From Cyanidioschyzon merolae (Eukaryota), in assembly GCA_000091205.1 (NCBI GenBank), contig AP006487.2: DNA of 64,000 bases. One strand, written 5' to 3'. This document shows positions 2,519-62,885 of the stretch, one piece after another (position 1 is the first letter of the stretch; each line of letters begins with the position of its first letter). The position numbers and the translations under genes were made by a program. Under the pieces are notes generated by a model. The model had not been told where the DNA came from. It made no database searches and saw nothing but the letters and a program-made list of their open reading frames with translations.

Positions 2519-4128
2519 TGTGCAATCCAATGTTCCCAGATGCAATCTATATGCTAGCAACGAAGAAGTAGTAGGCTTCAAAGAAGCGATGTCAACCGTC
2601 TCTTACCAGTAAGAGTCGGACAAAGCACTCAGCACAAAACGAAGCAGAACGAAACGGTGGCACTTGCGCTGCAGCGTGCCAGAGTGCGTGTCCAGCTGTC
2701 AGACACCGTCGTCACTTACGCGTCCGCTCTGAAAGCTGGACACGAACTTGCCCAAGGGCCTTGGCGAGAACGCGTCTTCGTTCCAAAAGCCTACTTTCGT
2801 ATGCCCAGTTTCCGAGGCTCCTTCACTATAAGAGAGCAAAGTCACAACCAAAGTCGTTGATTTGTTGCAACTTTCCCGCAACGTACCAAACTCGCGACTC
2901 TGCGTCTTGGTTGCGCTTTCACCAACTCGATTCCAGTAGCTGGAGGCTAGTGTCCACAAAAAGCACAAGTCCGACGTGAAACTCGTTCTACGCAGGTAGA
3001 GATGCTCCCAGAGGTCCGCACCGTCGTCGAGTCACCCCGAGGGCGTTGTCGGGTTTCGCGAACGAAGGAATATGTCGCAGTAGCAACGAGTTCCTTTCGA
3101 ATCCGAAACCTACGCCTCGTCAGTGTGTTTGGCCCGTCGATATCAAGTATGCGTTTCCCCGTATATGATATGACGTAACGGCACAATTGTCTGTTACTCG
3201 AAGAGCGAGCGACGCACGGACCGATGCGCGGGAAAAACCGACGGAACGGATGCGTGCACCGCCGTGACGCAGCGTCGATTTCTCCTTCGACGACACGCAT
3301 TCGATTTTGTGACACTTTAATGTAACGCTCGCGGGAGCGCGCGCGGCCACCCCGCGGGGATTTCGATTACATAGAGGTTATAGAGTTTCATGTCAATTGT
3401 GTTCCACTGCCAGGTGCAAGTACGCAACTGGTGTTTCGCGGTTCATAGAAGATGTATTCGGAGTGCGTTCAGTTCAAGAAATAAATACGCTAGAGGCAAT
3501 GGTTTCGACATGGGGTTCGTGGATCCCAGAGGCCCCGTATTGCAGGTTTCGACAAAAAAAGTGAAAAAATTCCTCTTCTTACGGAGCGTCGAGCAAAGAA
3601 GAGCGATTGACGAAGAAGCAGAAGGGGCGAACTGGGCGAGAAGAGGTATTTTCCGGACGGTGCGAAAATGAGACTCATGTCATACATAGGACGCTAGTCT
3701 TACGAATACTTGCATCGGTGAGTTCAACCAGAGGCAATGAACGCAATGAGTTCGTGAACCGGGAATCTCACACCGTCATTAAAATCAGAAAATGTGCGGT
3801 GCTGAACATGAGATTCGAGGAGCTGACGCGATCGAAGTAACTTGGGCAGCCTCTGGTACTCGACGTGTCCAGAAATATTCTGAAACCGATAAAAGTCGGC
3901 CGGTCAACGAAGGCGGGGAGGCGTATGCGCGTGCGTATACATACATAGCCTCCGTGGTCGTAGAACGTCTATTGGTTTCACGAAACATCGTATAAATGGA
4001 GCAGGTGCACTTGGCTAACTCTCGCGTCTACCCTAAAGATTTAGGCTGTTTCCAATGTCATCGACACCAGGCTTTGTGGAGGTTTTCTGAGACTGCTCCC
4101 TTTTTCTTGGACGTTGATACAGTTTTTT

Positions 4129-5299
4129 ATACGCTGCTCCGTCCTTTCATCCAGTTTCCCTCCTGATAGTCGAAGGCTGTCAACAGCTGCGTTCGAGTTC
4201 GGACGTGAAGTTTCGGGCACTTATCTATCTATGCCGTTCATGCAGAGGCCGAAGTCGTCATCTACATTTCGCTCGCCATTTTGATCTTCTTTGTATGCAG
4301 CAGCAGCAGCAGCAGCAGCAGCAGTGCACCGTCTCCAGCGGCGACACTTGGGTGCCGTCGGGTGCTTCTATAGGCGCACCACCATCCAGCCTCCTCCAGA
4401 CGCTGCCTCGTGTCGCGTCAAACTTGCTTCATCGCAAGGTGTACGCCCTTGAAGGACACAGGGGCGCTCCACTCGATGCCCCCCTCCGTTTCGACGCCTG
4501 GTGTCGTACACTGTGGTCGCGGCCTTCCTCTTGGCGATTCGTTCTGCGACTGTTCTGTCTGCTGGACACGCAAGAACGTACTGTTGCATCCAATAAGATA
4601 TTTTGTGGAAAGCGATCTTGTCCTTGATAAAACACGAACCAGAAGGAGAATTCAGACTGGACAACACGTCGAGGAATTCCGACCCGGCTACGCTTGCACC
4701 ATTGCGAGCGAGAGATACAAAAAAACTCAGACCGGAGTCCAAGCGCCTGTCCCGTGCAAACAGAAGCGACGTCAGCCACTGAGCACAGATCCCCAAAGAG
4801 GTATCATGCAGATTTCGAATCCAGATTCGTCGATGGCCACGACGAGAGGAGCAATCATCTATCAAACCGAAATTATTACAGGACATGGTATGTTCAGTGA
4901 TCTTTTCGCATGAGCTTGCGAAAAATTCGCCAACGGTCAACGTCGAGATTTTCTCCTCGTCAGTTCAGCAGCGCGAATCGCTGCGTACGATGGTTGCCTT
5001 TAAACATAAAGATCGAGAACGTGAAGAATATGTGATTTGAACCTGCTACACACAAGCAAAGAAGGATCGTGGATGCTTGCACGTCTGCATTGCATACGGA
5101 TATCGATTCTTTCTTGCGTTCCCATGTTCGACTGCGTCGCGAATCCTCTTCATTCCAGTGGTGTCACGCCTTGCAGCGACAATGCTTCCAAGGCGCTACA
5201 TCGAAAAAAAATAACGACCGAGAATCCTGAATCGACGTATGAATCCGCATCCCCTTATGGTTGCTCTTCTAGTATCGAGTCTGTACATCTCAAAAACAT
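4129..5299 (+). repeat. Copy A of a ~1.17 kb dispersed repeat; near-identical inverted partner at 61448-62604. Contains an internal (CAG)9 run at about 4298-4325
   Basis: The two regions are co-linear at the DNA level. The same ORF translations appear in both: MKFRALIYLCRSC... (4205-4627 + and 62115-62528 -), MTVGEFFASSCEKITEHTMS... (4368-4940 - and 61801-62313 +), MNLL[H/Y]TSKE[G/E]SWMLARLHCIRIS... (5037-5360 + and 61324-61704 -). They differ only by scattered substitutions and CAG-run length. Ends were estimated where flanking sequence diverges. Confidence 0.85.
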
Positions 5300-6338
5300 G
5301 CTCGGAAAATATCGACATGCCGGCACTGGCCAAGCAGTTCAGTATTCCATTCTAGTGTGACATGGGCGTAGCGTTCGAACGTTTCCGCATTGATCGACGG
5401 AAATGACATACTCAGTAGAGATCCCGGCTGGCAGGGTGATTTTCCGGGATTCGCGCCCATATTCCACCATTCCTCGCGCAAACCCCAGGTTCCGACATCC
5501 TCCTCCTAAACGCCCGTCGGAGACAATAGCCGTTTCGTAAGTTCCGGCCTGCACTGAGCCTGCCAAGAGCGTTTGCAATAATCCCTATGGCACCGGTGCG
5601 TACCTGGCACGACGAGAGCGCGGCTTTGGGAAACCACTGAAGGCGTCGGCTTGAGGCATGGTTCACCCGACACGAGGTCAGATCTCATAGACATTCCGAA
5701 GTCCAGCGGACTTGCTATGCAGGCGTGCCTTAAAGGCAAGACCCGTTCGAGTTACATGGCTTACAGGAGGAATCCTGGGGGCTCGTCTCCCCTTCACAAC
5801 CCTCTGAGGAAAGCGTCGTCGTTTCGCAAAATAGCGGTTTTGCTCCGAACCCGCGCGTGAGAAGGTGCACGAATCGCTGAACTCGTGTGCTCTTCCGTTT
5901 CGTGCCAAATTTCGCCTAAAAGGTACGGAGCACACGAAAGCGCACGCTCTTGGTGAACGTACCACCCGGCTCGATGGCCGACCCGGGGGATTCAGGTCAA
6001 AATGATCAGACTTGCAACGTAAAAAATCCGTTCAAGCTGATTCCACCTCAAGACGACTCCACTCTAAATCATCCATACCATAGCATAGAATTTGCTCTCG
6101 AGCCGGCAACCAACGGCATCCAAATGTTTTTCTGAGGAAGCACCACGACACAGCAAACCGGGAAGCGGAACACGCGCGGCAACGTCGGCGCCACCGGACA
6201 CACCATCATCTGCGCCACTACATAACTGCATATTTGTGCTGCTACTTGTTCAGTTCAAGCTGGTGCATTTTTTTGAAAAAGTGATCCTAGTCGACGTGAA
6301 CAAATACATATTTCCTTCCAACATACTACGAACAAGGT

Positions 6339-9118: not shown

Positions 9119-9337
9119 TGTTCCTATTCTCATGCAACCGGCCTGTCGACGCCGCGGCCGCGCGAGCATTCATGGCCCCTCAACGTCTGCTTGCGATCCA
9201 GATGCGCGCAGTGCCCCGAGCCGCCGCAGCCGCCGCAGCTGCCGCAATGCATCTGTGGCGATGGCGGCATTCTTCCATACGTTGAGCTCCACTGAAATTT
9301 CAGGGATTGGTCGTAGCTGCCCCAACTGCCCCACAAC

Positions 9338-12157: not shown

Positions 12158-13432
12158 GCGTGGTATCCAGGGTTCGTCCCTGGATGCTCTGTACGATAGG
12201 GAAAAGAGCGGAGCTTGTCTGCGTGAGTTCACGATTGAACAAGCGCAGAACGAGCGATCGGCGAAAGCGTCTTTCAGGCCAAGCGTAAAGCAGCACAGCC
12301 TCCACCTGTGATTGATCAGCGCGGAACACCGACCCGTGCGCTCTGTTCGTGCATTCCGATTCTCTCTGGGAAGTTTCTCTCTCAGATGCACCGACTCGAT
12401 ATTCCAAGGGCCGGCACAAGGGCTGGTGGATGCATACATAGGTACGGGATGCTCGGTCTGTTTTCCCAAGCGACTTCAGCGACGCTTTCTCGCGGGAATT
12501 CGATACGTTACTGGCATCAAAATGGTTCATGGTAGGTCAGGACTCGGATTCAGAGTACTGCGGTTATCATGAGACCATGGAGACATACAGGGCTCCTCTC
12601 TGCTTTTTCACTGACATGCAGCATGCTCGAATCGCGCGTTCATCAAGTTTCCGATATTTCTGTTTCAGGTTGCTTTGTCGACACATCCATTCGCGCTGCG
12701 GAATGGATGAGGGGAACGGGAACGAAGATGCCCCTTGGCGATTTCCTCACAAGCTCCGGCAGCAAGCCCCCTGAATCTATCGCCTCAAACAATCGACTCG
12801 GTCTGAACGGCAAATCCCCCGCTCTTGGTGATCATCGACGGAACAACATTGGACGGCAGCATGAAACCTCCCACGGGAGATGATGCAGGACGCGTTCTTT
12901 CGTTCGGTGTTTGCCAGGAAGAAGACCACGGGATCGGAATGGATTCCAGTCAGCGATCGCTTCGAGTGGAGCGTGCTTCACTGCGTTGCCCGAACGAAGC
13001 GTGTTCAGATCGATATTCGTCGAATTGTTCTCCCGTTTTGGATGTTCGTTTCGGTACTTGTTTTTCCATGGTAAACATCGCGCTCCATAAACACTCTATC
13101 GAATGGAATAGCCTGTTCTTGCACGTCCAATAGACAGCGTGCTCGAGCAGGAAATCGCAAACGAGAAGCCTGTCATCGTTGCATGTTGCAGCGGGCGCGA
13201 AAACGAGCAAGCACATCGCGGGAAGCCTTCTGTACCAGTCGAGGGCATGTACCGAACGATGAAATGAGGTTTCACGCGCCACAGCGTTGTCGTCTTCCTC
13301 CTCAGCGGAGGACTAGGACTAGTTGGAGAAAGTTTGATATACTTATGAGAACACGCAACTACCGTGGATTGTCAGCGCTACGAAGCGCGCACCGATGCTT
13401 TATACAAAGCAGATGAAAATGGCAAGCAACGC

Positions 13433-14065
13433 TTACATCTCAACGAAAAGCTGCGCATCCAGTGTGTCGATAGCAGCTGTGCGTGTCGACATTGCGACTG
13501 GAACACCGCAATCAACATCCTTCGACTCCTGACAACAGAGCTGGAGGGGCAGGAATGACCGGCGTCTTTCATGCTGCAGAGAAGAGATAGAGGAAACGGA
13601 GCTAATCATACAAAACCCCGCAACAGGCTGGTGATGACGACAAAGTATACTGACCCAAACTTGAGCATGATCATCCGAATGAGAGCACCCGTCCCTTTCT
13701 AGTCTAACATGGGCGTCACGTGATGCACGCCGTATAAACGCCGGGAACTGGACCAGAGCGTCACCATCACCATCACTATCATCATCACGATCATTATCAT
13801 CATCACCATCACCGTCACTATCAGCATTGTCATCACCATCATCACTATCATTATCACCATCCTGGATTCGGATCGCGAGTGTACGCTTTACAGGGGCTGT
13901 CTCCGTGTATACCCTCGGATGAAGCAATCCAAAACCGCCTGACGTGTCGCACACTATATCCAGGGAACCGGAGTATCGCCTTCTTGGGTACGGCGTGCGA
14001 GCGCAGACTTGACACCAGATGCCTCCGCAATGAACATCAGGTAGAACAACCACAGCAGCAGACAT
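13433..14065 (-). CDS. Hypothetical acidic protein (Asp/Gly/Asn-rich run DGDDNADSDGDGDDDNDRDDDSDGDGD); possibly spurious
   Basis: ORF of 210 aa. The acidic run is the antisense reading of an imperfect (CAY)n His-codon microsatellite. No recognisable domain. Confidence 0.2.
   Translation of the reverse strand: MSAAVVVLPDVHCGGIWCQVCARTPYPRRRYSGSLDIVCDTSGGFGLLHPRVYTETAPVKRTLAIRIQDGDNDSDDGDDNADSDGDGDDDNDRDDDSDGDGDALVQFPAFIRRASRDAHVRLERDGCSHSDDHAQVWVSILCRHHQPVAGFCMISSVSSISSLQHERRRSFLPLQLCCQESKDVDCGVPVAMSTRTAAIDTLDAQLFVEM
13760..13860. repeat. Imperfect (CAC/CAT/TAT)n trinucleotide array, about 100 bp
   Basis: caccatcaccatcactatcatcatcacgatcattatcatcatcaccatcaccgtcac... seen directly. It reads as poly-His/Tyr in one frame, but a stop lies immediately upstream and no ATG, so it is probably non-coding on the plus strand. 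Confidence 0.8.
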
Positions 14066-16742: not shown

Positions 16743-19700
16743 TCTCACTAGTTACACGCCCGCAATTCAGAATACACGGAGTCAACAGATCGGCTCCACC
16801 CAAGAAAACTGTGCAAAAGATACAAAACTCTTGTCCAGGAAGCGAGTACGCCCCGCGAAAGCTCCCGGAACAAAAAAGCGCTTCAGAGGGCACGGAGCTA
16901 CCGCGCACCCTAGTCTGTGCGGTAGCAAACTTTGCGTCGTGTACGCTCTATGCTCGCCAGTCCGCTGCCTGAATAGACACAAGACAACACACCAGAGCAG
17001 TGCGTGCGGTACACGCGCACCAAAAAAAAACGACGAATGACGTTACACTCAAAGCTCGTGGAGTCTCTGCCAGAAGCGCTCCTAACGAGCGCTGCCGGAC
17101 TCGCGTGCCCGTTGCACGTCACCACCCTCAGATGCATTATTGTACATGATTGTACTAAATGGAACCGTTTCTAAGAATCTCCTGGTGGCGGCAAGCGCAC
17201 TGCGCCTCTCGTGATCGGGTTCGTGACGCGCGCACGCAGCATCTCGCCACCGGAGTCGGCAGGCGTCGTTGACGGACAGCGCGCGTGTCACGCAAGCGCC
17301 TGGCGTCGCTCCGGCACGCAGCGCGGCTGAACGGAGGCACGCAGGATGTCGCCACTGGCGTCGCTGCGGCACGCGATGCCCATGAGGCGCAGCCAGGTCG
17401 CAGTGCGCGCTAGCTGACGGGCTCAATAGGACTCTTGCACGCGCATGCAAGCGGAACCGGCGCTATGGGCTGTGCACGAGCAAGGCAGATCACGGTCGTG
17501 ACATGTGTACAGGAGCAGGATTCGAGCTTCTGCATCGGGCCTGGACATTGCCTGTGCAAACGCGAACGGAAAAGATGTCGACGCTGTAGGCGGCGTTTCG
17601 TGTGCCAGCTGCCGACGACGCATGGCGCACGGTAATGCGCAGGCATGTCGGGAAAAACTGGAACAGGCCCTGTAACTCGGGTATACATTCTAAAGTTTGG
17701 GTATCTTCCTGCGATTGTCAATTGCAGGTGTTGCAGGATTTTCTGTCACTGATTCTTTACCTCTCTCTTGTCTCCGCCCGTATATACGACAGTCGATACT
17801 GACCAGCCAGCTTCGATGTCAGGATTCGAAGGGTGTTGACGGTGGCACGCAAGTGCCGAGTTCACGGCGTCCGGCTGTTGCCCAGGCATTTCATGCACTA
17901 GTGAAAGTTACGATCTAGGCTTCGGTTGCCGAATTCACCTTCCATGTATACAGGCCTGGTGCGTTCTTTTGGAGCGATGACGTACCCGGTTGTGATCGGG
18001 TGTTCAGTGATGTCTAACGCGCCTCTTCCTCCGAGTGCTGCCCTGTGGCGCGCAAACGCTTGCTTTATTGCCTGATACTCGTACTTGGCGGGTACGAAAG
18101 GCCCCTTTGGATGCCGTCCTCAGTTTCCTCGCCAGCCGCGGCACCCTGCGATGACGGCATTCTTGTGCGCGATTCCATCGGCGCGTACGATGCCCGTTGC
18201 ACACACCAAAAGCGGCTGCAGCCCACTTGGTGGAGGATTTGTGAAACGTGGTGTTTTCCATGATGAAACAAGTGCCGGACGGCGAAGGCTCGTCGGAGAA
18301 CAAATCGAGAGCTCATGATCCGTGTACACTACCCTGGTGCAAATTGGTGAAGAACGATGCACTGGAAGCGATCGCTGCGATGACTCATATCCGAGTTTCA
18401 GACATTTTCGCATGCAAACCGGAGGAGTGCGAGCCTCAGGGAACATGTCACATGACGCACCCCGCACTGGGTTCGAATCCCGTTTTATCGATGTTCACAC
18501 CGAGAGGACGTGTCTCCTTTACAAACGAGATCAACGATTTGACGCGACAGGTCCAGTGAACCTTTGGGATGCGCTGGTGAACAAAGCGTCAAGAGACGAC
18601 ATCGATGATCTTGCTGTTTTACTCCTGCCACGCAAATCGCTTCGCCCACGATCAGCCTTGAAACAGAGAGGTCGATAACGTGAAGTATACGTGATTTGAA
18701 CATTCTGCACATGAAGAGAGGAGAGGAGTCGATGCTTGTACGTACGCTTTGAATGATCATATTTGTTATGTTGTATGCCCGTATTCAAGGGAGTCATGAA
18801 TCATGGCAATTCCGATGACGCTAAGAATTCCAGTGTTCAAGCGTCGGAGGAGCCTTTCCAAAACGAAGACCGAGACACCCGAACCTGCGTTTGAGTCCAA
18901 AAAAACCCGGACTGCTGCACTGGTACTGTCGAAGATGTACTTGTACAAAAGAATCAAAAGCCAAGAACACACCATGCAGTTCAGCGTTCTATTCTAAACT
19001 GAGACAAGCGTAGATTCGATTTGTGCGAGATAATCCTTTCGTTCTGGATAGAATGCATTCCTGCAGGAAGACCGCGGAAAGCACCACGATTCAGTCAATC
19101 TGGACACCATGCTCTCCAGCTGACTTTTGATTTACGGTCCTAGTCGTTTCAAACACCAGGTCGGGACGACTCCGGGCAGCTCGATACCCCCGTGAAAGCG
19201 CAAGCGTAGCGGCCAGAGAACGCTGGAGCGCAGGCGTGTTCTGACCCAGGGCGGGCAGCAGCGTCTCGAGACGGTGCAGAGCGGCGAGCAGCGCAGGCGC
19301 TCGACGACCCCAACAAGGAGATAGCGTCGCCGTTCCGTTTCTGTGCGATGTCTGCGGTAGCGCTATAGGATTCATTGCCGGCGCCCGCGCGACAGAATGC
19401 ACGGAGCGTGTTCCCAAAAGTAAAGCAGAGTTCGGAACCGGTGAAACTCGGATGTATGGTGCGGAATAATGGGTGCTCTCCCGAACGGAAGCGACACTCT
19501 GGCAGTCGGGTGTCTCTTTGTTCGTGAGAACGATACGACAACTATACGTGCCTCGTGAAACAAAAAATATTTCACGAACTTGTCGGGTACATGAATATGC
19601 CCACGCGCAGACGCGTCCCAGCATTGTTTTACCGACCGACGGCTATCGGCTTCAGTTTCTAATTGAACACTTCAACTCTGGGAAGCAGCCCCACAAAGTT

Positions 19701-20164
19701 GGATCGCAACAGCTTCTCGGGCATCGTCTTCCGCACCGCACATCATCTGATACGGAGAGCGTTGTTAAAGTCCCGGTTACCGAATTCCATTCGTCAATTG
19801 CCTCTGGTTGAACGCACCAATGCAAGGATTCCTACAATTCGAACCAACTGAACAACTACAGACTCTTCATCGCTCCCTCAGGGAAACACAGTTTCTCGCC
19901 TATCTCCCATGTTCTTCACCTGCTTTTCCTCGCTCGATAGTAGCCGAAACGAGGATTCTCTCGTTCTTTTCCAGCAGCCAGCGATGCAGGCCTTCCAGAA
20001 TCCTCGACTTGCAAGTCCAAGCCTTTCCCTTTGATTTTTGTTTCTTCAATATGAACGCAATTCGAACGCGTCAGCTATAAAGGCGCCAAACAGCATGTGC
20101 GCACACGCTCCCGGGGGCGAAGCTCTGGTGCGATGAAAGCCCTGCGCAAAACTCGCGGATCGGT

Positions 20165-20290
20165 GCGGCGCATCGCCCTGCAGGCGCGATTGCTGTCGCT
20201 TTCGGCAGGCTCGTCACACGATAGGACGTATGAAACGACCAGAATATCCGAGATGAAGTATAGGTAATGCAACTTGGGAATAGGGGGTTG
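20165..20290 (-). repeat. Copy 1 of a short dispersed element (about 130-170 bp family; other copies at 38120-38260 and 55390-55580)
   Basis: The reverse complement aligns to 38120-38245: ...tctcggatattctggtcgtttc[a/g]tacgtcctatcgt[g/a]tg...gcctgccgaaagcgacagcaat[c/a]gcgcct[g/a]cag... It also shows up as shared peptides in the spurious ORFs: LGYSGRF[I/V]RPIV, LPKATAIAP, ISDILVVSYVLS, AESDSN. It sits about 230 bp upstream of the CenH3 ATG. Confidence 0.75.
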
Positions 20291-20513
20291 ATGGATACCT
20301 CACCGCGCACTGAAACAAACACACATAAAAAAGTAAGAGAAGAAAAATGCGCATAATCGGAGAACGCTGGCCTAGGGAAACGTTTTGTGCATGAAAAAAA
20401 TCGCCCTGCAGGTCCATGACATCAATCCTTCCTTTTTATAAACCTTTAGGTATATAGCGGCCACAGGGTTCGCAAACGCTCCAGCGGCGCGCCAATTCAA
20501 ATCCGATCGTGTA

Positions 20514-37746: not shown

Positions 37747-38119
37747 CAGTTAAGCGGCCGTTGCATACGCCGTTTACGTTTCAGGAGAAATAATGATACC
37801 CGAATCGGCGCGCTGGGCGTTGCTCTCGGCCATCGACGCCGAGCGCCGCTGGGCGCGGCATATCATCGTCGGGTGCGGCTGCGCGCCTGTGCTCCCTGGT
37901 CCATCAGTGATGCAGCTGGGCTCGTGATCATCACAGCAGTGCCCGCTGGAGTACCTTCTGAAGCATGGTATTTGCATTGGTTTGTGTTGCGCATAGGTAG
38001 TCAACGCATGGCATGGATGTGCGCGCTCGGCTGCAACCAGCGGATGTGCCGAGACGTGGTGCGGTCGCTGCATGGGGCTACGAGAAGAAACGGGCATTTA
38101 TTGTACAATTCAGTCATCC

Positions 38120-38260
38120 TATAGGTACTCGCTGGATCTCGGATATTCTGGTCGTTTCGTACGTCCTATCGTATGTGCCTACTGCCTGCCGAAAGCGACA
38201 GCAATAGCGCCTACAGCGCCGATGCGGTCGCTGCACGGAGACAGAACGGCGTTGCCGTGC
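38120..38260 (+). repeat. Copy 2 of the short dispersed element (see 20165-20290 and 55390-55580)
   Basis: DNA alignment to the other two copies as described for copy 1. It lies in the divergent intergenic region between the B56 gene (ATG at 37746) and the MARVEL-like gene (39767). Confidence 0.75.
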
Positions 38261-39766
38261 ACCATACGGAGGGCGTCGGCTCGCGTGTCATCGCTGGATG
38301 CGCCTCGTTTCTCGAGTCCGTTTCCTGTGTGTGTGGTATGCGCGTCAACCGGGCCGTATTCGACGCTACCTACGCGACTAGGTCCTTGGAAATCCATAAA
38401 GGTACGATTGACAAGTCATGGAATGCAAAGTTTTCGTCCCGTTGATACGAACGTCGCTGAAGGGAAACGGATGCATGCAGGGGTACGCACGCTGGCGTGG
38501 GAGAGCTGCTCGCGCGTTCATCGATACTCGCGATCGATTTCGTGCGGGAACGCGAATACTGATTGCAACACGATCGGCTATTCGTCTCATTCGGACGGAA
38601 TGTATCCGGGGGCTACATGGTATACTCGTCTGTGGGTGCAAACTTAGTGCAAAGCGCTACTCGTAGATCGGCGACCGGCGTGCATCCCGACACCTCGAAT
38701 TCCGTCGTACGCATGCAGGATGCACGGCTTTGCACGCTTCATTCAGCGCGTTCGTAAGCGTCTGCACGGCTCTTGCAGACCAGATTCGCAAGCGTCGAGA
38801 TGATCAAGCCGGTGCTCGCCGATGATTCGTATTGTAGCGAGACAAGACGTGTGCTCTCGCCAGTTCGTTCAGCGCTTTCGAAAAGAAAACGACCGACAAG
38901 CGGCATCGTTTACTGGTGCTAGCCTCTGTCGCAAGACGTGCCGTACCGTGTCAAGGCCGTGCGCTTGCGCTTTCGATAAGAACGCCCAACGCGTGCTGGA
39001 ATCGACGCAGTCAGATTCCCGTCGATGCCCCCAGGGCGACAAGCATGCATCGGCATCTGGGGCGCGCGCTGAAACTGGTAAATATAACCATCACGTAGCG
39101 GTTTCGACGTTCGAATGGCCTCAGCATCGTGCTCCTGTTGGAGATAGGGCCTGGATCGATCCAGCGACCTCGTGACTGCCAGTTTGATCAGGGCGCTTGA
39201 TCCGTCACGCGTCGATGTATCGTTACCGCGTTCGCGATACCTCCACCGAACGAGACGCCCGTGTTTGTCCTCGCGTCATCCCAGGGCGTAGCGACCTTGA
39301 GCGGCAACACCCGAAAGCACGCGCGCATGCCACAGCCCGTCATCGCTGCATCGGGACGCGCGCAAACTGCCGAATCCTCCCCGAATGACCCAGAGGTTTT
39401 CCGTCTCGATCATCAACTCGTATCCGTGCATTTAGCGAGGCGTTCCGGGATACGCGTATGCCGTCTGGTATCAGGAAAGCAGCACACACGCTTCTGTGTT
39501 TATGTTTATGCGGGTGCATATGCCTTGGCGTTCACCACTCGACATTATTCCAGAATCCGTGCACGCGATGCTGCCTGCAGCGCGCCTATCGCCACCGCGC
39601 GGACACGTCGCGCACGCGATCTGCGCGCCAGCCAGCCGTTGATGCGTGTCCTGCAATGCGTGTATTTTCTGTTTTACGTGACGTGTTACGTTGCCGCCTT
39701 CTTCACCGGTGCGCTTTGACGAACATTGCCTTCGAGGCGGCACGTTTCGTAGTGGATTGATTTTTC

Positions 39767-40723: not shown

Positions 40724-41675
40724 AAGTCGATGCGGTCCCAGAGCGCAGTGCGCTGCACGGACGGTGTCCAGCGTCTGGAGCCGTCAAGAGTCGTGAACGC
40801 TGGTTTGTTCACAGCGTTTCGGCTGGATTCGGCGGCATCGGGGTCATCGTGTGGTTCGCGGATGCATCATCTCGGAGACGTTCCCTGCTGAGCCGCATCT
40901 TGTTTCGGGGATTTGTGCGAACACTTGTCGCAGGAAAAGAGGGAGAACCACGCGATCGCTGGCAGCGTCGTATGCAGCGATGTCGTCACTGAGTGGTACG
41001 GCTTGAGCGCGTTCAATTTAGCGATGCTCGCTGGGAGCTATTTTGTCTCTGCGGAAAGGCAGTCGTCGAGGCTGTTCATACCAGATGCTTCATTTTATCG
41101 AGCAGCGCAGACGATTGTTGTTGAATTCGCTATTGGACGGAGGAGAACAGCGCGCTTGCGCTTGCTTTTGGAGCGAATTGCATCCGAGCGATGCCCGGAG
41201 AGCGCGCATGCACGCTCTGTCTTTTGCACGCGAGTATCATGCGCACTCAAAGACTAGAGATCTGGAGAGCAGTTTGAAAGCCCCTAGCGCGCTAGCATTT
41301 GCCTAGGTCGGAATGCGCTTCCAGCGATGGATCTGAGCCCCGAGCGCCGTGCAAGCAACAGCGAAGCACATGCCGCAGTTGCCAAGAACGCAACCACGGG
41401 TTTTTTGTCCGCAGGCGTCCCGCGTGAGCGAAACGCAACCGAGTTCAGTGCTTGCTGGCTGAACACCCGAAGATCGTGAAACGCACACTGTCCAAATCAT
41501 CGATATAGTAGGATGTCCAAATAGACAGCATGCTTTAGAGCTACTCGAGGCATGGTAAAAAGATACAAGGCACCGCATCTGCATCGTCTACGCAAATCTG
41601 CACCGCGATCCCAACGACAACGAGCCGCAGCAGCCGAGTCCGACGAGGCATGCGCACACATCGAGTATCGAACAG

Positions 41676-42115
41676 CTACCGCTTGCACAAAGCAGCACCG
41701 CCATCATGAAAGGTAAAGCACGCGATGCGTTTGAGCGTCAAAGGCAAACACCCGTGTCAGTTTCAAATGGAACGGGTTCACTAGGCTACCGCTTGCACAA
41801 AGCAGCACAGCCATCATGAAAGGTAAAGCACGCGATGCGTTTGAGCGTCAAAGGCAAACACCCGTGTCAGTTTCAAATGGAACGGGTTCACTAGGCTGAC
41901 GCTTGCACAAAGCAGCACAGCCATCATGAAAGGTAAAGCACGCGATGCGTTTGAGCGTCAAAGGCAAACACCCGTGTCAGTTTCAAATGGAACGGGTTCA
42001 CTAGGCTACCGCTTGCACAAAGCAGCACCGCCATCATGAAAGGTAAAGCACGCGATGCGTTTGAGCGTCAAAGGCAAACACCCGTGTCAGTTTCAAATGG
42101 AACGGGTTCACTAGG
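41676..42115 (+). repeat. Minisatellite: 110 bp unit x 4 head-to-tail copies (>95% identical)
   Basis: Unit ctaccgcttgcacaaagcagcaccgccatcatgaaaggtaaagcacgcgatgcgtttgagcgtcaaaggcaaacacccgtgtcagtttcaaatggaacgggttcactagg, repeated from 41676 to 42115 with 2-3 substitutions per copy. 110 is not a multiple of 3, so it is not a coding repeat. Confidence 0.9.
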
Positions 42116-43507
42116 CTGATCTGGACGCACATCGCAAACCCCTGGTCTCTTCCAAATGTCATCAAGGCTAACCTCTGCGGGACTTGTCTGCGACTGCTTG
42201 CGTTTCCTATCTATTGCCTCCAGTTTTAAATGCGCCGGTCTCTCCAGTGTCAGTGGCTCCGATGCAAGCAGTTGATGGGTCCTCGTGGCAACCTTAGAAT
42301 CCCGAGAGCGCCGCTTCCGGCTATTGTGGAGACATATGACGCACAGGCGCTAGTCCCGATCCAGGCATCGCGTAGAAACTGAATGCGTTTCTCAGACAAC
42401 CTCGGTGCGTCCTGTGTAGCGGCGACACGCGCCAGTGATTATGCGTCCCCATTCGTTCACGCAACCAGCGCCACCAGCGCCTGCTCTTCCGAGCGCCGCA
42501 CGATGGCGCCCAAACGCTCGCTTGCTCGCTCCACACAGGTCATTGACGAGTACGGAACGCTTCCCTAGATATCCTCGCGCGTTTCAGCGCCAGACACCGG
42601 CCCCCGCGATCACGTACCTGTTCCGGGCGATGCCGTCGACGAGTACGCTGTCGGATGCACACACAAGCGCACACTGTTTCATTCGATCAAGGATTTGTGG
42701 AATGCGCGGTTGTCCATAATGAGAATCGTGCCGGGAGAAGGACTACCCAAACCGGAGAACAAGTCGAGAAATTTCGATCTGTCTACGCGCCATTCATGAA
42801 AGCGGAGGCGTACTCTGTACGTTTAGCGATCGCTGCAAACATCAAGGTCCGAATCCAGGACCCTTTTCCATGCAAACAGAAGCATAGGGAACCTCTGGTA
42901 GCATATTCCGAGAGAAATATCACGCAGATGTGGAAAGTTGTCCAGTCGATAACCAAAAAATGCGGAGTATTTGTCTTTGGAATGAAATTCTTTACTTGAC
43001 GGTGCACGCTCAGTGACCGTTCGACGTGCGCTCGGGAACAACTCGTCAACAAACGACGTCGAGTATCCTCGCTCGTCGATTCAGCGACGCGGTTAACGGT
43101 ACCCATGAGTTGCCTCGAAAGAGAACGGTCGAAAACTTGAAAATTGCCCGATTGATGCACGTTCCACGCATCGAAACGAGATGCGTGAACGCATTGACGT
43201 GCGAATCAAAGAACCACGTCGGTTACTTGACAAACCCGTGGTTGCATGCATCACGAGTCACACAGAGTCCTCTGAGGTACCATATTCCAGCACCGAAGCG
43301 TCAAACAAGTCACTCCAAAGAAACAACCAAGCATTCTAGAACAAGGTTCGAATCCGTTATCTCCTCTGCCTGCACGGCCTATGTCGATGTTGCCCATCTA
43401 AACGTGTCCGACGGTAATCGCTTGGCAAGAGCAGACCATTGCTCCACCCAAGTGAAACACAGAGATACGTACAGAGAGCCACTTTTGTGTGGCATGCATG
43501 CAGCCTA

Positions 43508-50014: not shown

Positions 50015-53000
50015 AGACACAGCGGACACGAACGCGTCGATACAAGTTCGTGTGTCGAAGCGCGAAAGAGCGCTGTGCGCGTACCAGAAATGGCGTGCGC
50101 ACGCATCGCATCGGATGTGACATTGCGTGCGCGTTCGTGACACAGCACGCATCGCCCAGTGGATACGATGCGTGCGCCCGCATCGATAGCGCGCGTTTAG
50201 CGCATGCCGTCGCAAGCCCTGGTTGGCCTGACGGGTACCAGCGATCGGTGAAACGTATACCACGCATCACATTATATCCAGGTTGTCTCTCCAAAACTCG
50301 CATTCCGAGATACGAATGAAAGCGAACGTTCCATGGTGTGCTGATGCTGCTGCTTCTGAGTTCGTTGGTAGGACGCATTGGATCATGTATGTGACACAGG
50401 TACGCTCGTGAGGGAATGCAGTGGGATTCCATCCGTTTTGCGCTGTAACCATTGGATCGCGGGATTCACGCAAGCGTTGTGCTTCGTACGGCCCGGTGTT
50501 GCCGTCTAGATCGGCTCGTACGGTGCACAGAAGCGCTGGAGAGCGTAGCGGCGAGCAAGCATGCCACAGAGGTGATCTTCTCAAGTGCGTCGGTGGATTC
50601 GATGGTTAGGCAATGGTGCAGCGCGGGTAGCATTCGGGCCACTCTGCACTGCCGCGTACAATATTTCGCGCATCCGTCTGCGGGGCCACTCCAGAAGGCG
50701 CCCGAAGATGCAGTGATCGGGGTCGCGCAAGGTCCCCGAGTCCGTGCCGTCCCGGTGCCGGCGCTCGCTAGACTCGATTTCCGAGTCCTCGGTGGATCAG
50801 CCGAGCCTCTGATGCATGAGAACGTACTGCTCCGGAGCGAATGGCACGCAGATGCTTGTGCAGAGAAACAAGGGTTTCTTTACTGGGAACCCGGTGATGT
50901 GGTCGCGTTCGGCACCGTCTGGTCAGTTTCCATGAGTCATGCACCATCTGGGAGGCCGTCGGCGTCGCTGCTTGGCAGCTACCATCATCAAACTGAAGGC
51001 GCTGACACATGTTGCCGGTCATGAGGAAAGCGTCTGCGATAAAGCGGGATCTACCAGGGGCTCGGCACACACCGGTACAACCGTTTCCGCGACGTTCTGG
51101 ACTCGAGCAGCAATGGTGCCTCGTAGACGTCAATGCACCAGACTAGCGATGCTACCCAGTCAAGGCAGATGTCTGTGAGGCACGCCCGTCGCTGGCCCAC
51201 CAGAGACTGCGTGCAGCCGTTGCCGACGCCGCGCGTCGCCACTCCAAGTATAAACGTTCCAGAATAAGGGAGCAGAGATGCATGTACCTAGCATGGGTGG
51301 ATGCAGTAAACGTTGCGCCTCTTCCCATTGCCATGAATATCAGTCCTTGGGCAGGTTCCTGCGACTGCTTCCTTTTCGCTCTATCCTCTCCCCGGCATGC
51401 GATACACCGAACGCTCGCTTCCCTGCCTGTACAGTGTAAGCAGTTGAAGGATGTTGATGGCAGCGTTCAGGCTCTGATTCCGCTGCTTTCGACCATGGTC
51501 GACATATCCCATGCACATGCAGAAGTTGCGATCTACAGTTCCCCTTCCATTTTCATACACGTCGTGTCCAGCCTCGGTGTGTCAGTCGCAGGGGTGATGC
51601 TTGCCTGTGGTCGGGTGTTTCTATTTGTCCAGTAGGCATCTTCCCCGAAGCACTGCGCTGGGGCGCGTGACAGCTGGTTTCATGGAGCGCTATACGTCCT
51701 TGACGGGTACAGAAGGCTCGTCTGGACGCCCTGCTCTGTTTCCATGCTCGCTGGCTGCTGCACACAACGATCACGGACTTGTTCTGGGCGATCGCCTCAG
51801 TGCGTATTTTGTCGTCTGTACAGGGGAACGCGCGCTATCTCGTTCGATAGACACTTTAAGGACCATGATGTTGTCCATGATGAAAAAGTTACCCAAAAGG
51901 AAACTCCAAGCCGGAGAGCAAAGCAAAAAACTCCGAATCATCCAGGTTCACGTCGAGCAACGCGGTGATACATGCCCCACTGGAAGCGATCGCTGCGATG
52001 ACTCACGGGTTCGAGTCCGAAACGCTTTTCCATCCCGAAAGACGCAACGCAAGCCTGTGGGATCATATGCAGTGAGAGGCGCAATGTGCCTGTTCAATAT
52101 CGTTCACCCGGCAGCCGTGAAGAGAGGAGAATTTTTTTTGGAACCAAGCCGATTCTTGGACGTGACAAGATCACAGACCTATGAGCATGAGCTGGAGAGC
52201 AACTCGTCGCCGGACGAGGTCAGATGTTTCGCCTTGTCAATCCAGAGGCGCGAACGGTTGCCTCCACGAAAGTTGCCCGGATACAGAAACACCGGTACCC
52301 AGAAGCGTGTTCCATTCGCGTGCGATACATCTAGGGAGACGAGAGGAATAGAGGCTAGTACGTATACATCGAAAAATACTTATATCGGTTGGTTTACGAT
52401 GCCTCGTTCGAGTGCGTTGCGAATCATCCTGAATCCTCTGGTGTAACGTACTCCACAGACGAAGCGCCTAGTCCGCCGCTTTATTCCTCCGATAGAGGCT
52501 CGTAGAAAACTATGTGTGAATCCTCGCAGGCATATAGCTGTACTGCGACTTGCAAGAATTTTCCATTAAACATCTTCGGAAAATAGTCAAAAAGTAGGAA
52601 CAGAGCGTGCAGTTCACTGTCCGATGTCATGCTGCTACAGAAACGGAGAGCATGCGCTTCAGGCGAACGCGTACAGTTGGCGAGAATGCCGCGCCAGCCA
52701 GTCAGCCGCAGTGCAACGTGCAACGGACTTGCTGCACTGAGCATACTGACGTCCGCGCAGGCACGGCTGCGTCGGAGCGCCGATGTAGGGCCCTGGTCTT
52801 CATGAAGCCCCTTGTTTTCCTTGTTTCGGCTGACGAGCGCTCTGGCCCGACGCGCGGCAACGGCAGCGTGGGCCAGCGGGTCGCAGCCTGGCATACAAGC
52901 GGTGTGCACAGCAGCCAGCGCCTGCTGCAAACGCGTGTTCGAAGGGTTTGCGCCCAGCGACTGGCGCCGGCACCGAACTTCGGCAAAGCTTCCCACTCTT

Positions 53001-54147: not shown

Positions 54148-55389
54148 CAGCGGATTCGGGGCCAGCGCAGGCCGCTGCTACGGCGTCCGGGCGTCTCTTT
54201 TCTGCAAGCTGTGTTACACTGCAAGTTGGCGACCCAGAAAGCCACTTTCGATTCATTTACAAAGGACGGTATGCGTGGTTTTGTATTGAACAAAAAGGTC
54301 CGAGTCCCGGTGACTTGACGCGAAACGAGGCGTATGTGTTCATGCAGATGCATCGTCCACACAGAGAGCGTCGCTCATGGATTTCGGAGACGCATCTGGC
54401 TACTGGGACAAAGCGCGATGTGGTATTGGGTGTGTGCTTCCACTGCCATGAGCTGATGCCTCGTAAGGGGCGTTCGAGCGGCGGTCTATTTTATTGGTGG
54501 ACGTCAACGAAGACGAGACTGATCCACGGGTCCGGTATCGCAAACGTCTCAAGCTGCTGACGCCCTCGAATCGCTCACTGACGCCACTGAGGTTTGTCTA
54601 TCGCTCCTGGAGCGCTCTTTTTAGAGATGCGCTGTAGCGAGGGTATGTCGATGGCGCTCAGGCAAAGGTCGTTTGCTGCTGCACGGGCGACGGGCATTGC
54701 GCTCTGCAGCAGCAACAGCAACAGCGACTTTCGCGGTCGCCGGTTGAGCAGACCTTGAGTTCGCTTGACGGGCGATCTTGGACAGTATCACTGGGTGCTG
54801 GGCAAACCTGCGTTTGTGCAACCATTCATATGCGTCAAGTGCATTGGACGAGCACCTATGAAAGATCTTGTCGCATGCAGGCATACCCCAGCGAGTCACT
54901 TTGAGCATACGTGATCATGTGCACTGCACTGGAATACCTGCGACGTACTCGGTTCCACACTTGTTCTTATCTGTCCAGGTGGAGCGTTCATCCGTTGGAA
55001 TCGCCGACTTGTTTCTGTAATGGTTCTGCTGGCAGTGTCGCGTTCGAGCGACAGGTTGGACGCTCCACCGAGACCCCTGAATGGCGGAGAGCTTGCTGTG
55101 GCGTATTCGTTGCGTCCTGCGTGCAGCAGGCACGATGGAGGCCAGCCCGATGCCTTCACGGTACTGAGCGTCTCGTTTCCATGTGTGGATTGTATCGCAG
55201 CTGCCCTGCACTCGAGTTTAGCGTGCCTAGTTGCCACGGCTTGCTTGCGTGCTCGCTCGCGCTGCTCCAGCGATAAACAACCGACAGACTGTTTACCCTG
55301 ACCCCAGAGCCTGCAATCGGTGATCAATATCGGCAGCCGTGGCATAGTATGAATCGTTCCGTGCCATATCTCCAAGTTCCGCTAGCGGT

Positions 55390-55580
55390 ACTGCCCTTCG
55401 GGTATTCTGGTCATTTCGAATATTCCAGACCTGAAAGTTCCACTGGCCTGAGGCTATACCTGCCGTCGAAGATACTGGTTATTTCGTACCTTCTTTCGCC
55501 CTTCTGTGCATCGAGGTTGCCGTTAGCATCCGCACTAGCGCCGCTACATCGCTGCGGACACCGCACGGAGACGGAAAGGT
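55390..55580 (+). repeat. Copy 3 (more degenerate, internally duplicated) of the short dispersed element
   Basis: gggtattctggtcatttcgaatattcc... and gatactggttatttcgtaccttc... both match the core ggatattctggtcgtttcgtacgtcc. The downstream ...agcgccgctacatcgctgcggacaccgcacggagacgg matches 38200-38250. Confidence 0.6.
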
Positions 55581-57640
55581 TCGGCTATATCACTGATATG
55601 GTCGGCTCGAGCCGAGCTCGAGTTATATCGTGACGCGGGGATCCAGCAGTCGATGTATGCAGGCCTACCTTCGCGTGACGACGCGCTCAAGGAACTTGAT
55701 CGTTAGAACGAAACCTGGGCACCGGTTCTTGCTTGCGCTAACGCCACTTGAATGCTTCACTGTATCGCCACGCGGACTTTTGCACGGCACCCGTCCAGTG
55801 GGCAGCTGCATGAACCGCTGTACCCGTGTGCTCATCCATTTCCCGAGACCTTTTGCCAGGATGGCAGACACGCCGTCCCTGCATCGGGAAGCACGCCTCA
55901 TGTCCTCGGTGTGCGTCGACAGCACCTGTGTCCAGTACCCGAACATATCGCCTATTGCGCTAGCGAAGCAGCTCCATACTGCCTCTGCTTCGGCACTATC
56001 GGGCTATTCCGAATGCAAAGCTCAGTATCGGCGCATTATGGAACATACGATATGACCAGCGTCTTCAACGGGAAGTATGAGCATTGGAACGCGGAGAAAC
56101 GATGAAGCATCAAGGGCGCTTTCCCGATCGCGTCTATCAGGCGCATTACAGTCTTTCAGCTCAACATCGGTTCAAAGTCGCTGCAGTGGACAGCAGGAGA
56201 TCGAAATCAGGATGCCATGTACTGAATAGGCTGTTGAGGAATTACCTGTAGAATATATATTCTTAACTGAACAGCACAAGGAGGACTGCATTCGTCTTTC
56301 AGGTCAGACGCATCACAATACGTAGATGGTCGAGGAACACTGAAAGAAACACGTAGATGCGCTCCGCTCCAAAATCCGGTATTCTCGAAGAGTACCTGCT
56401 GTCAATCGCAGAGAGCCGGTCAGTTGAATACCTTACGGAAAGCAACAGCGACGATCGTAGCGACTACGTGGGTCAAATTTTCTCGCCAGCTTGTTCGTGT
56501 AATCCTGAAAACACTGGGATACGAGCGCAAAAGAGTCCTAGATGAGACACGGCCTTCCTCGACCGAAATCGCAACTACAACAAAAAACCCTGGAACGATG
56601 CGATGTGTACGAAGTATAGGATCGTCGGTTTGTTATTTTTGCAGTCGATGAGACTTGCTTCGGATGAAAGCGTCGGAGCGTATATGGGTACTCGCGGAGC
56701 AGGGCGCCCGTTGCGAATGGACGATTGAACTTGAGGAGACAGAGGACATTGTCTGTTCTAGCTTTAGTGGATTTATTTGGCGGCCCCAGTTAAGCTTATA
56801 GAGAACGCTCATATAACAGCACGGACACTGTTGTCGAATCATCGAAGAGTTTCCCCGAACCTCGGGCGACGTTCCCCTGCAGGACAGAGTGGCATTTCAC
56901 GATGCGCTGTGCGTTCGCGCTTCTCCGGATTCTATCGGGATCGCGCCGCTTTCCATTCCTCGGTACGCTCCATAATTCAGCCTCATCGAAGGAGTATTTT
57001 CTATTGTAAAAAAAGTAATGATTGCTTTTCTGGACGAATCGCTGAAGCGTTCAGCACACAGTGACACGCAGGAACACATGTCGTTGTCCTTCTGCACGTC
57101 CTTCTTCCTCCGGGAGGGCCCTGACTCACGGTCATGCAGCTGTGCGTCCTCTGAAGAAATGAAAAATCCAAGGGATAGGTATCGTCATGAAAGTCGAGGA
57201 TCCCAGAGGCCCCGTGTCGAAGAGTTTCACTGAAAAACGGAAGAAAACCGCTTCGCGCGTCTCTTCAATCTTCTCTCTGCTCGATTATCAGCGAGGTGGA
57301 TGTTTTCGGGGGGTTTTCGGGGGGTTTTCCCGGCACTCGGCGACACTGGACCCACTAGAATCCCCTACATCCACGTCCATATCTATCCCTCGGATTTTGT
57401 CTTCCACCAAATGGTTGCACCTCGAACAGTCTGTTAAAAAAAGCGAAACAAGCATTTGATGACACGCATCTGGACGTGGAACACAATTCAGGTGAAAGAC
57501 CAGAAACGTCGACAAGTGCGCGACGCAGCAGCAGCGGCAGCCGCATTCTTGTTGAGGTTGTCGTTCTACCGCTGCGACTGCGCTCGCGTGCTGTACAACA
57601 ACTCGCTGCTGCTCATTTCGGCTTGTGTCCAGGACCAAGC

Positions 57641-60625: not shown

Positions 60626-61447
60626 GAAGACTACGGTTGAGACTCGGTGCTCGATGTCCGATAGCCGCGTGATGAGATATCGTTCGCAACTGCAGCTTCG
60701 AAGGCGGTTTCTTGATCATACTGGCAAGCGAACGAGCGCCTGTATCGACGGCAACTCCAACCTTGCCATCAAGGCGGATGCAGCGCTCAGCGCAGCGGCT
60801 CGAGGCTCTGCTGCAGCCGCTCCGCTCCCGCTGGTATGCAGCCACCCGAAACAACGCTTACTGTTTCCGGAAAAGTTATTTGTTTTCGGATATTGAGAAA
60901 CCAGTGGCAGTATTCAAGGGTTGCAGGTCCAGATGAACGCTGGTTCACAGGCACGCGACTGGACGTTCCGAGTTTGCACAGGAGGCTCGAGGCGGAACCA
61001 GCGAAGCGCCAGTGCTGTTTACAGGCCTCGTGAGCGTTCTGCTGGCGAATGCGTAGAATAAGCGAGCCAAATTCGTCTAATCGGCCTCAGGGTGTTTGGT
61101 TCGTTGAAAGGTATTCTGAAACTAGAGTCAAGTTTGCATGTTGAAAAGACGCCGCGCCCTATGCGGCGTCAAACGTGCGCATGCACCTTGCAGTGCAGGA
61201 GATTCGAAAGAATGCATAGCCCAGGCATGTGTTTATAATGTTGTGCATATGTTTTTGTATCTGAACGTATATGTGCGGCTTTGTGTCGACCGGTCTCGTG
61301 ACCGGCTAGTCTAACAAGCGAGCTCAGGCAAGGACCGGTCGTTTTGGAAAACGGCAGCATTTGGAACGCGACACACATCCGTGGTAGACCAGAACGGAGC
61401 AGTGCGCTCTGTACCTGCTTTGTTGATGTTCGCATCTGAACTTGTTT

Positions 61448-62604
61448 TTGAGATGTACAGACCCGATACTAGAAGAGCAACCATAAGGGCATGCGGATTC
61501 ATACGTCGATTCAGGATTCTCGGTCGTTATTGTTTTTCGATGTAGCGCCTTGGAAGCATTGTCGCTGCAAGGCGTGACACCACCGGAATGAAGAGGACTC
61601 GCGACGCAGTCGAACATGGGAACGCAAGAAAGCATCGATATCCGTATGCAATGCAGACGTGCAAGCATCCACGATTCTTCTTTGCTTGTGTATAGCAGGT
61701 TCAAATCACATATTCTTCACGTTCTCGATCTTTATGTTTAAAGGCAACCATCGTACGCAGCGATTCGCGCTGCTGAACTGACGAGGAGAAAAACTCGACG
61801 TTGACCGTTGGCGAATTTTTCGCAAGCTCATGCGAAAAGATCACTGAACATACCATGTCCAGTAATAATTTCGGTTTGATAGATGATTGCTCCTCCCGTC
61901 GTGGCCATCGACGAATCTGGATTCGAAACCTGCATGATACCTCTTTGGGGATCTGTGCTCAGTGGCTGACGTCGCTTCTGTTTGCACGGGACAGGCGCTT
62001 GGACTCCGGTCTGAGTTTTTTTTGTATCTCTCGCTCGCAATGGTGCAAGCGTAGCCGGGTCGGAATGCCTCGACGTGTTGTCCAGTCTGAATTCTCCTTC
62101 TGGTTCGTGTTTCATCAAGGACAAGATCGCTTTCCACAAAATATCTTATTGGATGCAACAGTACGTTCTTGCGTGTCCAGCAGACAGAACAGTCGCAGAA
62201 CGAATCGCCCAGAGGAAGGCCGCGACCACAGTGTACGGCACCAGGCGTCGAAACGGAGGGGGGCATCGAGTGGAGCGCCCCTGTGTCCTTCAAGGGCGTA
62301 CACCTTGCGATGAAGCAAGTTTGACGCGACACGAGGCAGCGTCTGGAGGAGGCTGGATGGTGGTGCGCCTATGGAAGCACCCGACGGCACCCAAGTGTCG
62401 CCGCTGGAGATGGTGCACTGCTGCTGCTGCTGCTGCATACAAAGAAGATCAAAATGGCGAGCGAAATGTAGATGACGACTTCGGCCTCTGCATGAACGGC
62501 ATAGATAGATAAGTGCCCGAAACTTCACGTCCGAACTCGAACGCAGCTGTTGACAGCCTTCGACTATCAGGAGGGAAACTGGATGAAAGGACGGAGCAGC
62601 GTAT
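61448..62604 (-). repeat. Copy B of the ~1.17 kb repeat, inverted relative to copy A (4129-5299); internal (CAG)6 run
   Basis: See copy A. The reverse complement of 61448-62604 aligns end-to-end with 4129-5299. Confidence 0.85.
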
Positions 62605-62885
62605 TTACCACCGGATATAAGAAAGAGACGAGAAGGAAGCAGTCAAACAAAAATCCCGCAAAGGCCGGTACGAATGACACTGGCAGGGGACGCAAACTTT
62701 TGCATCCAAGCGCTAGCTACCAATGCCTGCCGGTTCCGCTTCATGCTAACATGAATTTCATCAGCGGTCGCGTATACTGGGCCCGATCTATCCGGGTCCG
62801 CGTTCAGGAGCCTTGCAGTGCAGGGCGCTTCTCGCGATACCGCACCAGGTGCTTCAGCGTTTCGCAGTGCGCCACCTTAAAACCG

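Follow-up and report, generated by a model that had tools for sequence, protein, structure and literature searches.

The stretch of DNA analysed here (the window, 64,000 nucleotides of Cyanidioschyzon merolae contig AP006487.2) carries long intronless ORFs on both strands, which include those for a PEP carboxylase (PEPC, identical as a protein to C. merolae 10D BAM79319.1), a CCCH zinc-finger protein, a CenH3-like histone, an MBOAT protein, two B56 subunits, a MARVEL protein, an acyltransferase and a Myb protein. That the two PEPC proteins are identical follows from their falling in one 90% cluster and from exact-sequence look-ups, in which both return the same polyadenylated transcript contigs. 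The intergenic DNA contains a dispersed repeat, six copies of which are found in the window by nhmmer with a profile built from the copies (D, E, B, A, C and F in order of position, Table 1), as well as larger repeat modules termed M1 and M2.

Table 1. Repeat copies, flanking direct repeats and larger repeat modules in the window
Feature	Coordinates	Strand	Description
Copy D	5442..5968	-	old, ~530 bp, 65% identical to LINE 3' consensus; runs into LINE sequence 5' of the tail
Copy E	19303..19569	+	degenerate, nearly full-length tail unit, model positions 16-277; nhmmer E=4.4e-18
Copy B TSD, 5' copy	20172..20184	.	perfect 13 bp, ATCGCCCTGCAGG
Copy B	20185..20399	+	215-bp 5'-truncated LINE 3' end; nhmmer E=1.9e-65 (LINE 3' model), profile-match limits 20170-20404
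Copy B TSD, 3' copy	20400..20412	.	ATCGCCCTGCAGG, immediately after the A-run
Copy A direct repeat, poly(A)-side junction	38129..38137	.	9 bp, TCGCTGGAT
Copy A	38138..38290	-	153-bp LINE 3'-region fragment, unit-model positions ~1-155; nhmmer E=2.6e-41, profile-match limits 38132-38283
Copy A direct repeat, 5' junction	38291..38299	.	second TCGCTGGAT
Copy C	55282..55868	-	old, ~590 bp, 62% identical to LINE 3' consensus; runs into LINE sequence 5' of the tail
Copy F	55968..56145	+	degenerate partial tail unit, model positions 48-229; nhmmer E=3.9e-22
M1, six copies	3995-5379(+), 12323-13668(-), 17664-19019(+), 42145-43402(+), 51266-52625(+), 61361-62737(-)		~1.35 kb
M2	3386-3994(+), 19543-20138(-), 57244-57498(-) and 57142-57254(+)		~0.6 kb; ~62-65% identical between copies

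The initial annotation had described three dispersed regions of a SINE/MITE-like element, and these regions are real and lie where it placed them. When 38001-38400 was compared with the window by BLASTN, copies A and B matched in inverted orientation (38136-38226 against 20254-20169, 87.9% identical over 91 bp, E=3e-21) and copies A and C matched at 69% over 117 bp (38139-38249 against 55466-55579, E=7e-11), with weaker matches at 5517-5651 and 19302-19384. An independent repeat search of the window returned a 40-nt inverted pair (20215-20254 / 38136-38175, 95% identical), and a degenerate 28-nt core pattern hit four sites exactly and a fifth with two mismatches, compared with none in 100 shuffles; by the BLASTN matches and these shuffles the three regions align well above chance. 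The core motif picked out at that stage is indeed the best conserved block of the family, and copy C is internally duplicated as described, with unit-model positions 124-175 present twice in the nhmmer match. Other parts of the description need revision. There are six copies in the window instead of three; the identity of 85-90% between copies applies to the A/B pair only, other pairs being ~60-70% identical; and the family unit is ~290 bp, about double the 130-170 bp proposed, the block originally delineated being the internal and 5' part of this unit read on its antisense strand.

More copies were collected by scanning JGI metagenome contigs with the 28-nt pattern, which yielded 120 loci (~1.0 Mb) from acidic hot-spring samples. 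In these loci nhmmer finds 175-192 copies, and the number of unique insertion sites is ~75-93, depending on how they are counted (85 with flanks clustered at 95%, 75 under a stricter criterion). The copies have in common a single very sharp boundary, ~140 nt past the element as initially drawn (2464 pairwise alignments, 85 unique sites). On the opposite side of the core the main boundary is ~160-180 nt away, and minor classes of boundary are found at ~+100, +420-540 and +940-1214. The consensus starts with a T-run, so to speak the poly(A) tail seen from behind: the opposite strand ends ...GTAAACGTTTTGTCAATG-A(5-9). The consensus and the 58 listed copies terminate ...TTTTGTCAATG-A(5-9), and beyond the A-run the DNA is unrelated in every copy. 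A conserved block, GTAAACGTTTTGTCA, directly precedes the A-run, a near-invariant 35-nt core of the tail reads CGATAGGACGTATGAAACGACCAGAATATCCGAGA, and in many copies conserved sequence also extends 5' of the unit (...GACGACGAGACCCGATTCTACGTCGGG followed by TGAACCACGCC).

Compared with this common 3' end, the 5' ends are variable. Alignment depth along a 2.9-kb long copy (L070) is ~110 at the 3' end and falls steadily to 4 at 2.8 kb. The inserts measure from 140 bp up to 1338 bp or more, and starts near 290 and 640 nt are over-represented; truncation points located within contigs, not at contig ends, leave ~572, 655, 1072, 1088, 1126 and 1338 bp, and short copies bearing target-site duplications (TSDs) span ~140, 188, 220, 221, 235, 250, 282, 293 and 301 bp. 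In this series 235 bp is the span of copy B, which measures 215 bp between its TSDs.

The long copies connect the tail to a reverse transcriptase (RT). In L070 an RVT_1 domain (Pfam, E=2.6e-23) is encoded at 11477-12256(-), on the poly(A) strand and 1.2-2 kb upstream of the tail, and a second long copy (L116) has RVT_1 upstream of its tail at E=5.3e-14. An independent contig (L131), collinear with L070 at 91% identity, repeats the order RT, further ORFs, tail. Among PDB sequences the nearest solved structures to the RT are R2 (E=1.6e-13) and then LINE-1 ORF2p. With two C. merolae 10D proteins the RT of the long copy shares 85-89% identity. Both bear the name ‘retroelement, alive’, the annotation carried by the class I RT genes of this alga (Matsuzaki 2004; Nozaki 2007, PMC1955436), in which 26 class I elements, all non-LTR-like, have been counted (Nozaki et al. 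2007, PMC1955436). In the long copies L070 and L131 the core motif sits 3' of the last ORF, in the 3' UTR, and hence not inside a conserved coding exon. We note that the linkage between tail and RT is read from metagenome contigs near-identical to 10D, in which every long copy sampled either carries frameshifts or is interrupted by the end of its contig, no intact full-length element having been assembled, and that Pfam recognised no endonuclease domain, APE or restriction-like, in the tested ORFs flanking the RT.

We propose that the repeat is, very probably, the non-coding 3' end (~290 bp, comprising a 3' UTR and a short A-tail) of a C. merolae non-LTR, LINE-type retrotransposon, present mostly as 5'-truncated copies. 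The copies share their poly(A) end, vary at their 5' ends, bear TSDs, stand on the same strand as the RT ORF of the long copies and are excluded from ORFs. The family itself is one already annotated in C. merolae, and the repeat is ordinary mobile-element debris. The earlier view of an older non-autonomous family was right in recognising mobile sequence, which is of mixed age, but the non-LTR retrotransposon whose 3' ends these copies represent is autonomous and encodes an RT. In such a scenario, target-primed reverse transcription would copy the element RNA into the chromosome starting from its poly(A) end, and an early stop of reverse transcription, or of second-strand joining, would leave most insertions with the 3' end only. 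The target, cut in a staggered manner, would be duplicated around each insertion, for which the exact duplications found, of 13-18 bp, would be the trace. Selection would then purge the copies that landed in genes, and the survivors would be those in intergenic or promoter-side positions, decaying there.

The window copies, with identities to the LINE or L2 consensus (the latter that of a ~640-nt form considered below) from 92% down to ~62%, span a range of decay. Copy B, 92% identical to the LINE 3' consensus and with a 3' end that reads ...GTTTTGTGCATGAAAAAA (also given as ...GTGCATGAAAAAA), is the youngest family copy in the window. Copy D lacks the last ~65 nt of the unit. Copy A, in which the final ~130 nt of the unit and the poly(A) end are missing, is not what target-primed reverse transcription typically leaves, and in this respect speaks against the LINE explanation. 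Its TCGCTGGAT repeats bracket it exactly at its homology limits; however, since repeats of at least 9 bp occur in 1.5% of mismatched controls, they are only suggestive of a TSD. Copy A could owe its shape to internal priming or to the capture of a cDNA fragment, and not to later deletion.

Across the family, exact direct repeats of at least 13 bp (13-18 bp long) are present at both junctions of 11 of the 93 unique copies, whereas in control pairings of mismatched 5' and 3' flanks repeats of 11 bp occur in 0.05% and repeats of 12 bp never. Immediately after the A-run, T follows in 57% of copies and ‘TCG’ in 27%, against 1-2% expected (49 unique 3' junctions, metagenome and window), which hints that the endonuclease of the element mildly prefers certain target sites; in copy B the ATCG after the A-run is part of the duplicated target. 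Search for an empty site, in which the joined flanks of copies with enough flanking sequence (184 element intervals in all) were compared with all loci, gave no match, a point against the LINE explanation. Both B and E are fixed: all four environmental relatives (L127-L130), which are 99.2-99.5% identical, carry them. At the orthologous CenH3/PEPC locus of Cyanidiococcus (L005, L006) no homologous copy was found, the intergenic DNA there being too diverged to count as an empty site.

The direct repeats also bear on the initial label, SINE/MITE-like, in which the recognition of dispersed, multi-copy, mobile-element sequence was correct, although the copies are neither MITEs nor classical SINEs. 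A MITE, that is, a short non-autonomous DNA transposon moved by a transposase, was suggested by first impression from short copies dispersed through intergenic DNA, and small size and intergenic spread are indeed the only points of resemblance. Terminal inverted matches in the consensus units and in copies A and B reach 3-6 nt at most, at or near the means of shuffled sequence (4.7-5.1) and short of all its maxima (8-10), so neither consensus units nor these window copies have terminal inverted repeats (TIRs). The flanking repeats vary in length (9-18 bp overall), where those of MITEs would be fixed, one end carries an A-run, and the long copies encode an RT instead of a related DNA transposase. 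P-MITE found no MITE in C. merolae (PMC3964958). The absence of TIRs together with the RT linkage refutes this identification, and we leave it a probability that is practically nil.

With classical SINEs the copies share small size, a tail in common with a LINE, an A-rich end, TSDs and intergenic location; they differ in having no detected tRNA, 7SL or 5S head. ARAGORN predicted no tRNA genes, and Rfam gave nothing at gathering score, with no match at E<=1 on copy A or on one L2 copy; as neither program detected a pol III-type head or A/B boxes, we rejected the classical SINE. A structured non-coding RNA family was rejected as well, there being no Rfam match and no conserved or covarying structure: for 53 non-redundant tails RNAalifold predicts hardly any pairs (-0.76 kcal/mol), and the conserved cores of both consensus types are not unusually stable as single sequences (z-scores +0.3 to +1.4). 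Conservation of the 35-nt core and of the terminal block before the A-run is, we infer, best explained by selection on the master RNA for recognition of its 3' end by the RT and/or the polyadenylation machinery. The cores have neither a stable nor a covarying fold, so that structure lends no support to recognition of the tail by the RT.

Let us consider, however, a variant in which the short copies are not accidental truncations at all, but discrete non-autonomous, SINE-like retroposons that borrow the LINE 3' tail and are moved in trans. Two forms would be involved: a ~290-nt form, S, which is roughly the LINE 3' UTR alone, and a ~640-654-nt form, L2. Of 18 unique L2 copies, 10 start at one sharp 5' end (GAAAGAACAGAAACTAAC...), preceded by unrelated sequence; L2 bears an A-tail, and one copy (L017) is flanked by a perfect 13-bp TSD. 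Its tail is only ~64% identical overall to that of the RT-bearing element, yet agrees with it at 31 of the 35 core positions. Some 12-18 independent S insertions start within ~10 nt of one another (..CCTCGAGCCGACGCC), which is more clustered than random 5' truncation predicts and is thus a point against the plain LINE reading. S copies, too, have TSDs (exact in L083, 15 bp, and L065, 18 bp; ~12 bp, judged by eye, in L011), and copy A begins at the S-type 5' end and is nearer to the consensus of the 640-nt form (79%) than to the LINE 3' consensus (73%). Measured on a long LINE copy (L131 2465-2756, 2720-2996), S copies begin ~25-30 nt ahead of the stop codon that closes its last called ORF, and therefore match the LINE 3' UTR almost exactly. 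Nevertheless, the S copies do not form a clade: the tail nearest to an S copy is a LINE or L2 tail no less often than another S copy, a mixture that fits repeated truncation. Window copies B, C and D also lack discrete ends, B being cut at 215 bp and C and D continuing into LINE-type upstream sequence, and without a tRNA, 7SL or 5S head or an Rfam match the short forms are not classical SINEs. We regard this variant as possible though doubtful.

LINE-derived retroposons without a pol III head are known in several lineages: RIME with ingi in Trypanosoma brucei, NARTc with L1Tc, EhSINE with EhLINE in Entamoeba, and HAL1 with L1. The ~640- and ~290-nt forms of C. merolae resemble these in having discrete ends, if only loosely so in the ~290-nt form, while sharing only the 3' tail with the autonomous element, and in combining TSDs and A-tails with the absence of a tRNA, 7SL or 5S head. 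They differ in that the S copies are not a clade, that no promoter or transcript was identified for them and that independent propagation is only putative. One may, tentatively, carry the idea further. S and L2 would then be head-less SINE-like retroposons that parasitise the LINE through the 35-nt core and the terminal block; together with truncated tails they would amount to several hundred to more than 1000 copies, ~1-3% of the genome, and promoter-proximal copies such as that at CenH3 would be preferentially retained in gene orientation as terminators, insulators or parts of promoters. We hold this extended scenario to be conceivable, with odds clearly against it.

Returning to 5'-truncated LINE 3' ends as the preferred reading, the distribution of copies relative to genes has to be considered. 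Only ~4% of copies lie in long ORFs, compared with 37% of random positions in the same loci. The initial annotation had all three copies in putative regulatory DNA; they are intergenic, but this siting mostly reflects exclusion from coding sequence. The classes of intergenic DNA occupied (divergent 20, tandem 18, convergent 10) do not differ from random placement (chi-square ~2.4, not significant). Orientation, on the other hand, is biased. Where an ATG follows within 1 kb downstream, 32 tails point in the same direction as the gene and 13 in the opposite one (binomial p=0.007; 75 unique sites from the window and L007-L126, with crude gene calls, ORFs of at least 250 aa). In the window, copy B has the orientation of the CenH3 gene and stops 115 bp short of its ATG (20514), copy E lies 945 bp upstream of the same ATG, also in its orientation, and copy A lies 391 bp upstream of B56 in the orientation of that gene. 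The gap of ~230 bp previously given between copy B and the CenH3 ATG is too long, as the copy reaches 20399.

These observations could be taken to mean that the repeat is a host cis-regulatory module, promoter- or terminator-like, which is repeated for its function and not through mobility. The high conservation of the core, the same-direction bias and the positions of copies B and A in front of CenH3 and B56 would all suit such a module. The TSDs, the poly(A) end and the RT linkage, however, mean that the copies arose by insertion; nothing homologous is present at the Cyanidiococcus CenH3/PEPC locus; and the random-like split among intergenic classes, crude as the gene calls are, shows no significant enrichment in promoter-type regions. 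We consider a host module very unlikely as the origin of the repeat, while individual copies may have been exapted secondarily. Copy B probably adjoins the CenH3 core promoter, and such copies, B among them, might affect the genes next to them. C. merolae being a genetically tractable model, an effect of this young copy, which borders the CenH3 promoter on its upstream side, could be tested directly.

Another candidate for the origin of the repeat lies in the larger repeats around it. C. merolae has a known repeat of ~3.2 kb, with a truncated WSV486-like ORF and a Fanzor1 element, CMe-1A, which would also be present in the gene-poor stretches of the window, and the tail could be the best conserved part of it. 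The 3.2-kb repeat is abundant, 253 copies having been reported (Nozaki 2007, PMC1955436), CMe-1A and TE-N2_CMe have been described by Bao & Jurka 2013, and copies D, E and B adjoin M1 or M2. The details of the arrangement do not agree with a common unit. M1 stops sharply ~60 bp before copy D, and the M1 pair that is 92-97% identical (4011-5379 / 62723-61361) excludes D; the tail is antisense to M1 at D but runs in the sense direction at E; only two of the six M1 copies have a tail in their neighbourhood; a 4.4-kb LINE copy has no similarity to M1 or M2; and no metagenome match crosses the M2/M1 junction, while the tail has a sharp boundary of its own. The boundaries and orientation of M1 and M2 in the window and the metagenome loci argue against the tail as an internal collinear part of a ~3-kb unit, and we consider descent from the 3.2-kb repeat exceedingly improbable.

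M1 itself may be identical with the 3.2-kb ‘WSV486-like’ repeat already described, or else with CMe-1A, the Fanzor1 element. Its copies are mostly 58-60% identical, with similarity in all frames by tblastx; in the metagenome loci it has ~50 matches with a sharp common end (~5379) and variable starts. The M1 ORFs tested had no Pfam match below E=0.01, and a 281-aa ORF had no PDB match and no homologue beyond itself. M2, with three copies in the window, a sharp end at ~3990 and 19-31 matches in the metagenome loci, directly abuts M1 at one locus only, and in size resembles TE-N2_CMe (635 bp; Bao & Jurka 2013).

A secondary consequence of the LINE-debris reading concerns how many such fragments there are. 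Tail sequence makes up 1946 bp (3.0%) of the window; in the metagenome loci, which were selected for carrying the element, its share is 7%, and non-seed copies occur there at 0.41 per 10 kb. Extrapolation to 16.5 Mb would give several hundred to ~1500 fragments, a rough figure in that both window and loci were selected for having copies. The usual figures for this ‘simplest’ eukaryotic genome are 26 class I elements and 0.7% transposons. The tails resemble the ‘dead-on-arrival’ non-LTR copies of the C. merolae class I set in sharing a 3' end with RT copies, in their A-tail, in variable TSDs and 5' ends and in decay with age; they differ from the published set, counted by RT similarity, in that tail fragments are far more numerous and apparently uncounted. 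The near transposon-free reputation of C. merolae rests on counts of RT-coding copies, and our numbers suggest a retroposon footprint several-fold above the quoted figure. The result mainly serves annotation: a recurrent intergenic motif of C. merolae is explained as LINE 3'-end debris, and its exact boundaries, consensus and TSDs are usable for masking. The consensus sequences are 709 nt long for the LINE 3' end, 654 nt for L2 and 284 nt for S. Only three aspects are mildly new: non-coding tails outnumber what has been published, some SINE-like forms may exist that lack a head, and a young insertion borders the CenH3 promoter.

Lastly, a few further features of the window deserve mention. The inverted M1 copies 4011-5379 and 62723-61361, 56 kb apart, are 92-97% identical with stretches at 97-100%, far more alike than other M1 pairs. 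The pair brackets most of the window, and its likeness suggests that duplication or gene conversion took place recently. A tandem array with a 110-bp unit occupies 41565-42224 and overlaps the 5' edge of the M1 copy 42145-43402; among its 220-nt members, spaced 110 nt apart, the central ones are 98-100% identical and the two edge members 60-63%. The full PEPC mRNA is present in two metatranscriptome contigs (L001/L002), 99.6% identical to window positions 9280-12311, with a 5' UTR of 57 nt, a poly(A) site ~150 nt past the stop and ACGTAAAG ~25 nt upstream of that site. The LINE tail carries a similar GTAAACG shortly before its A-run, and motifs of this kind may be a poly(A) signal.
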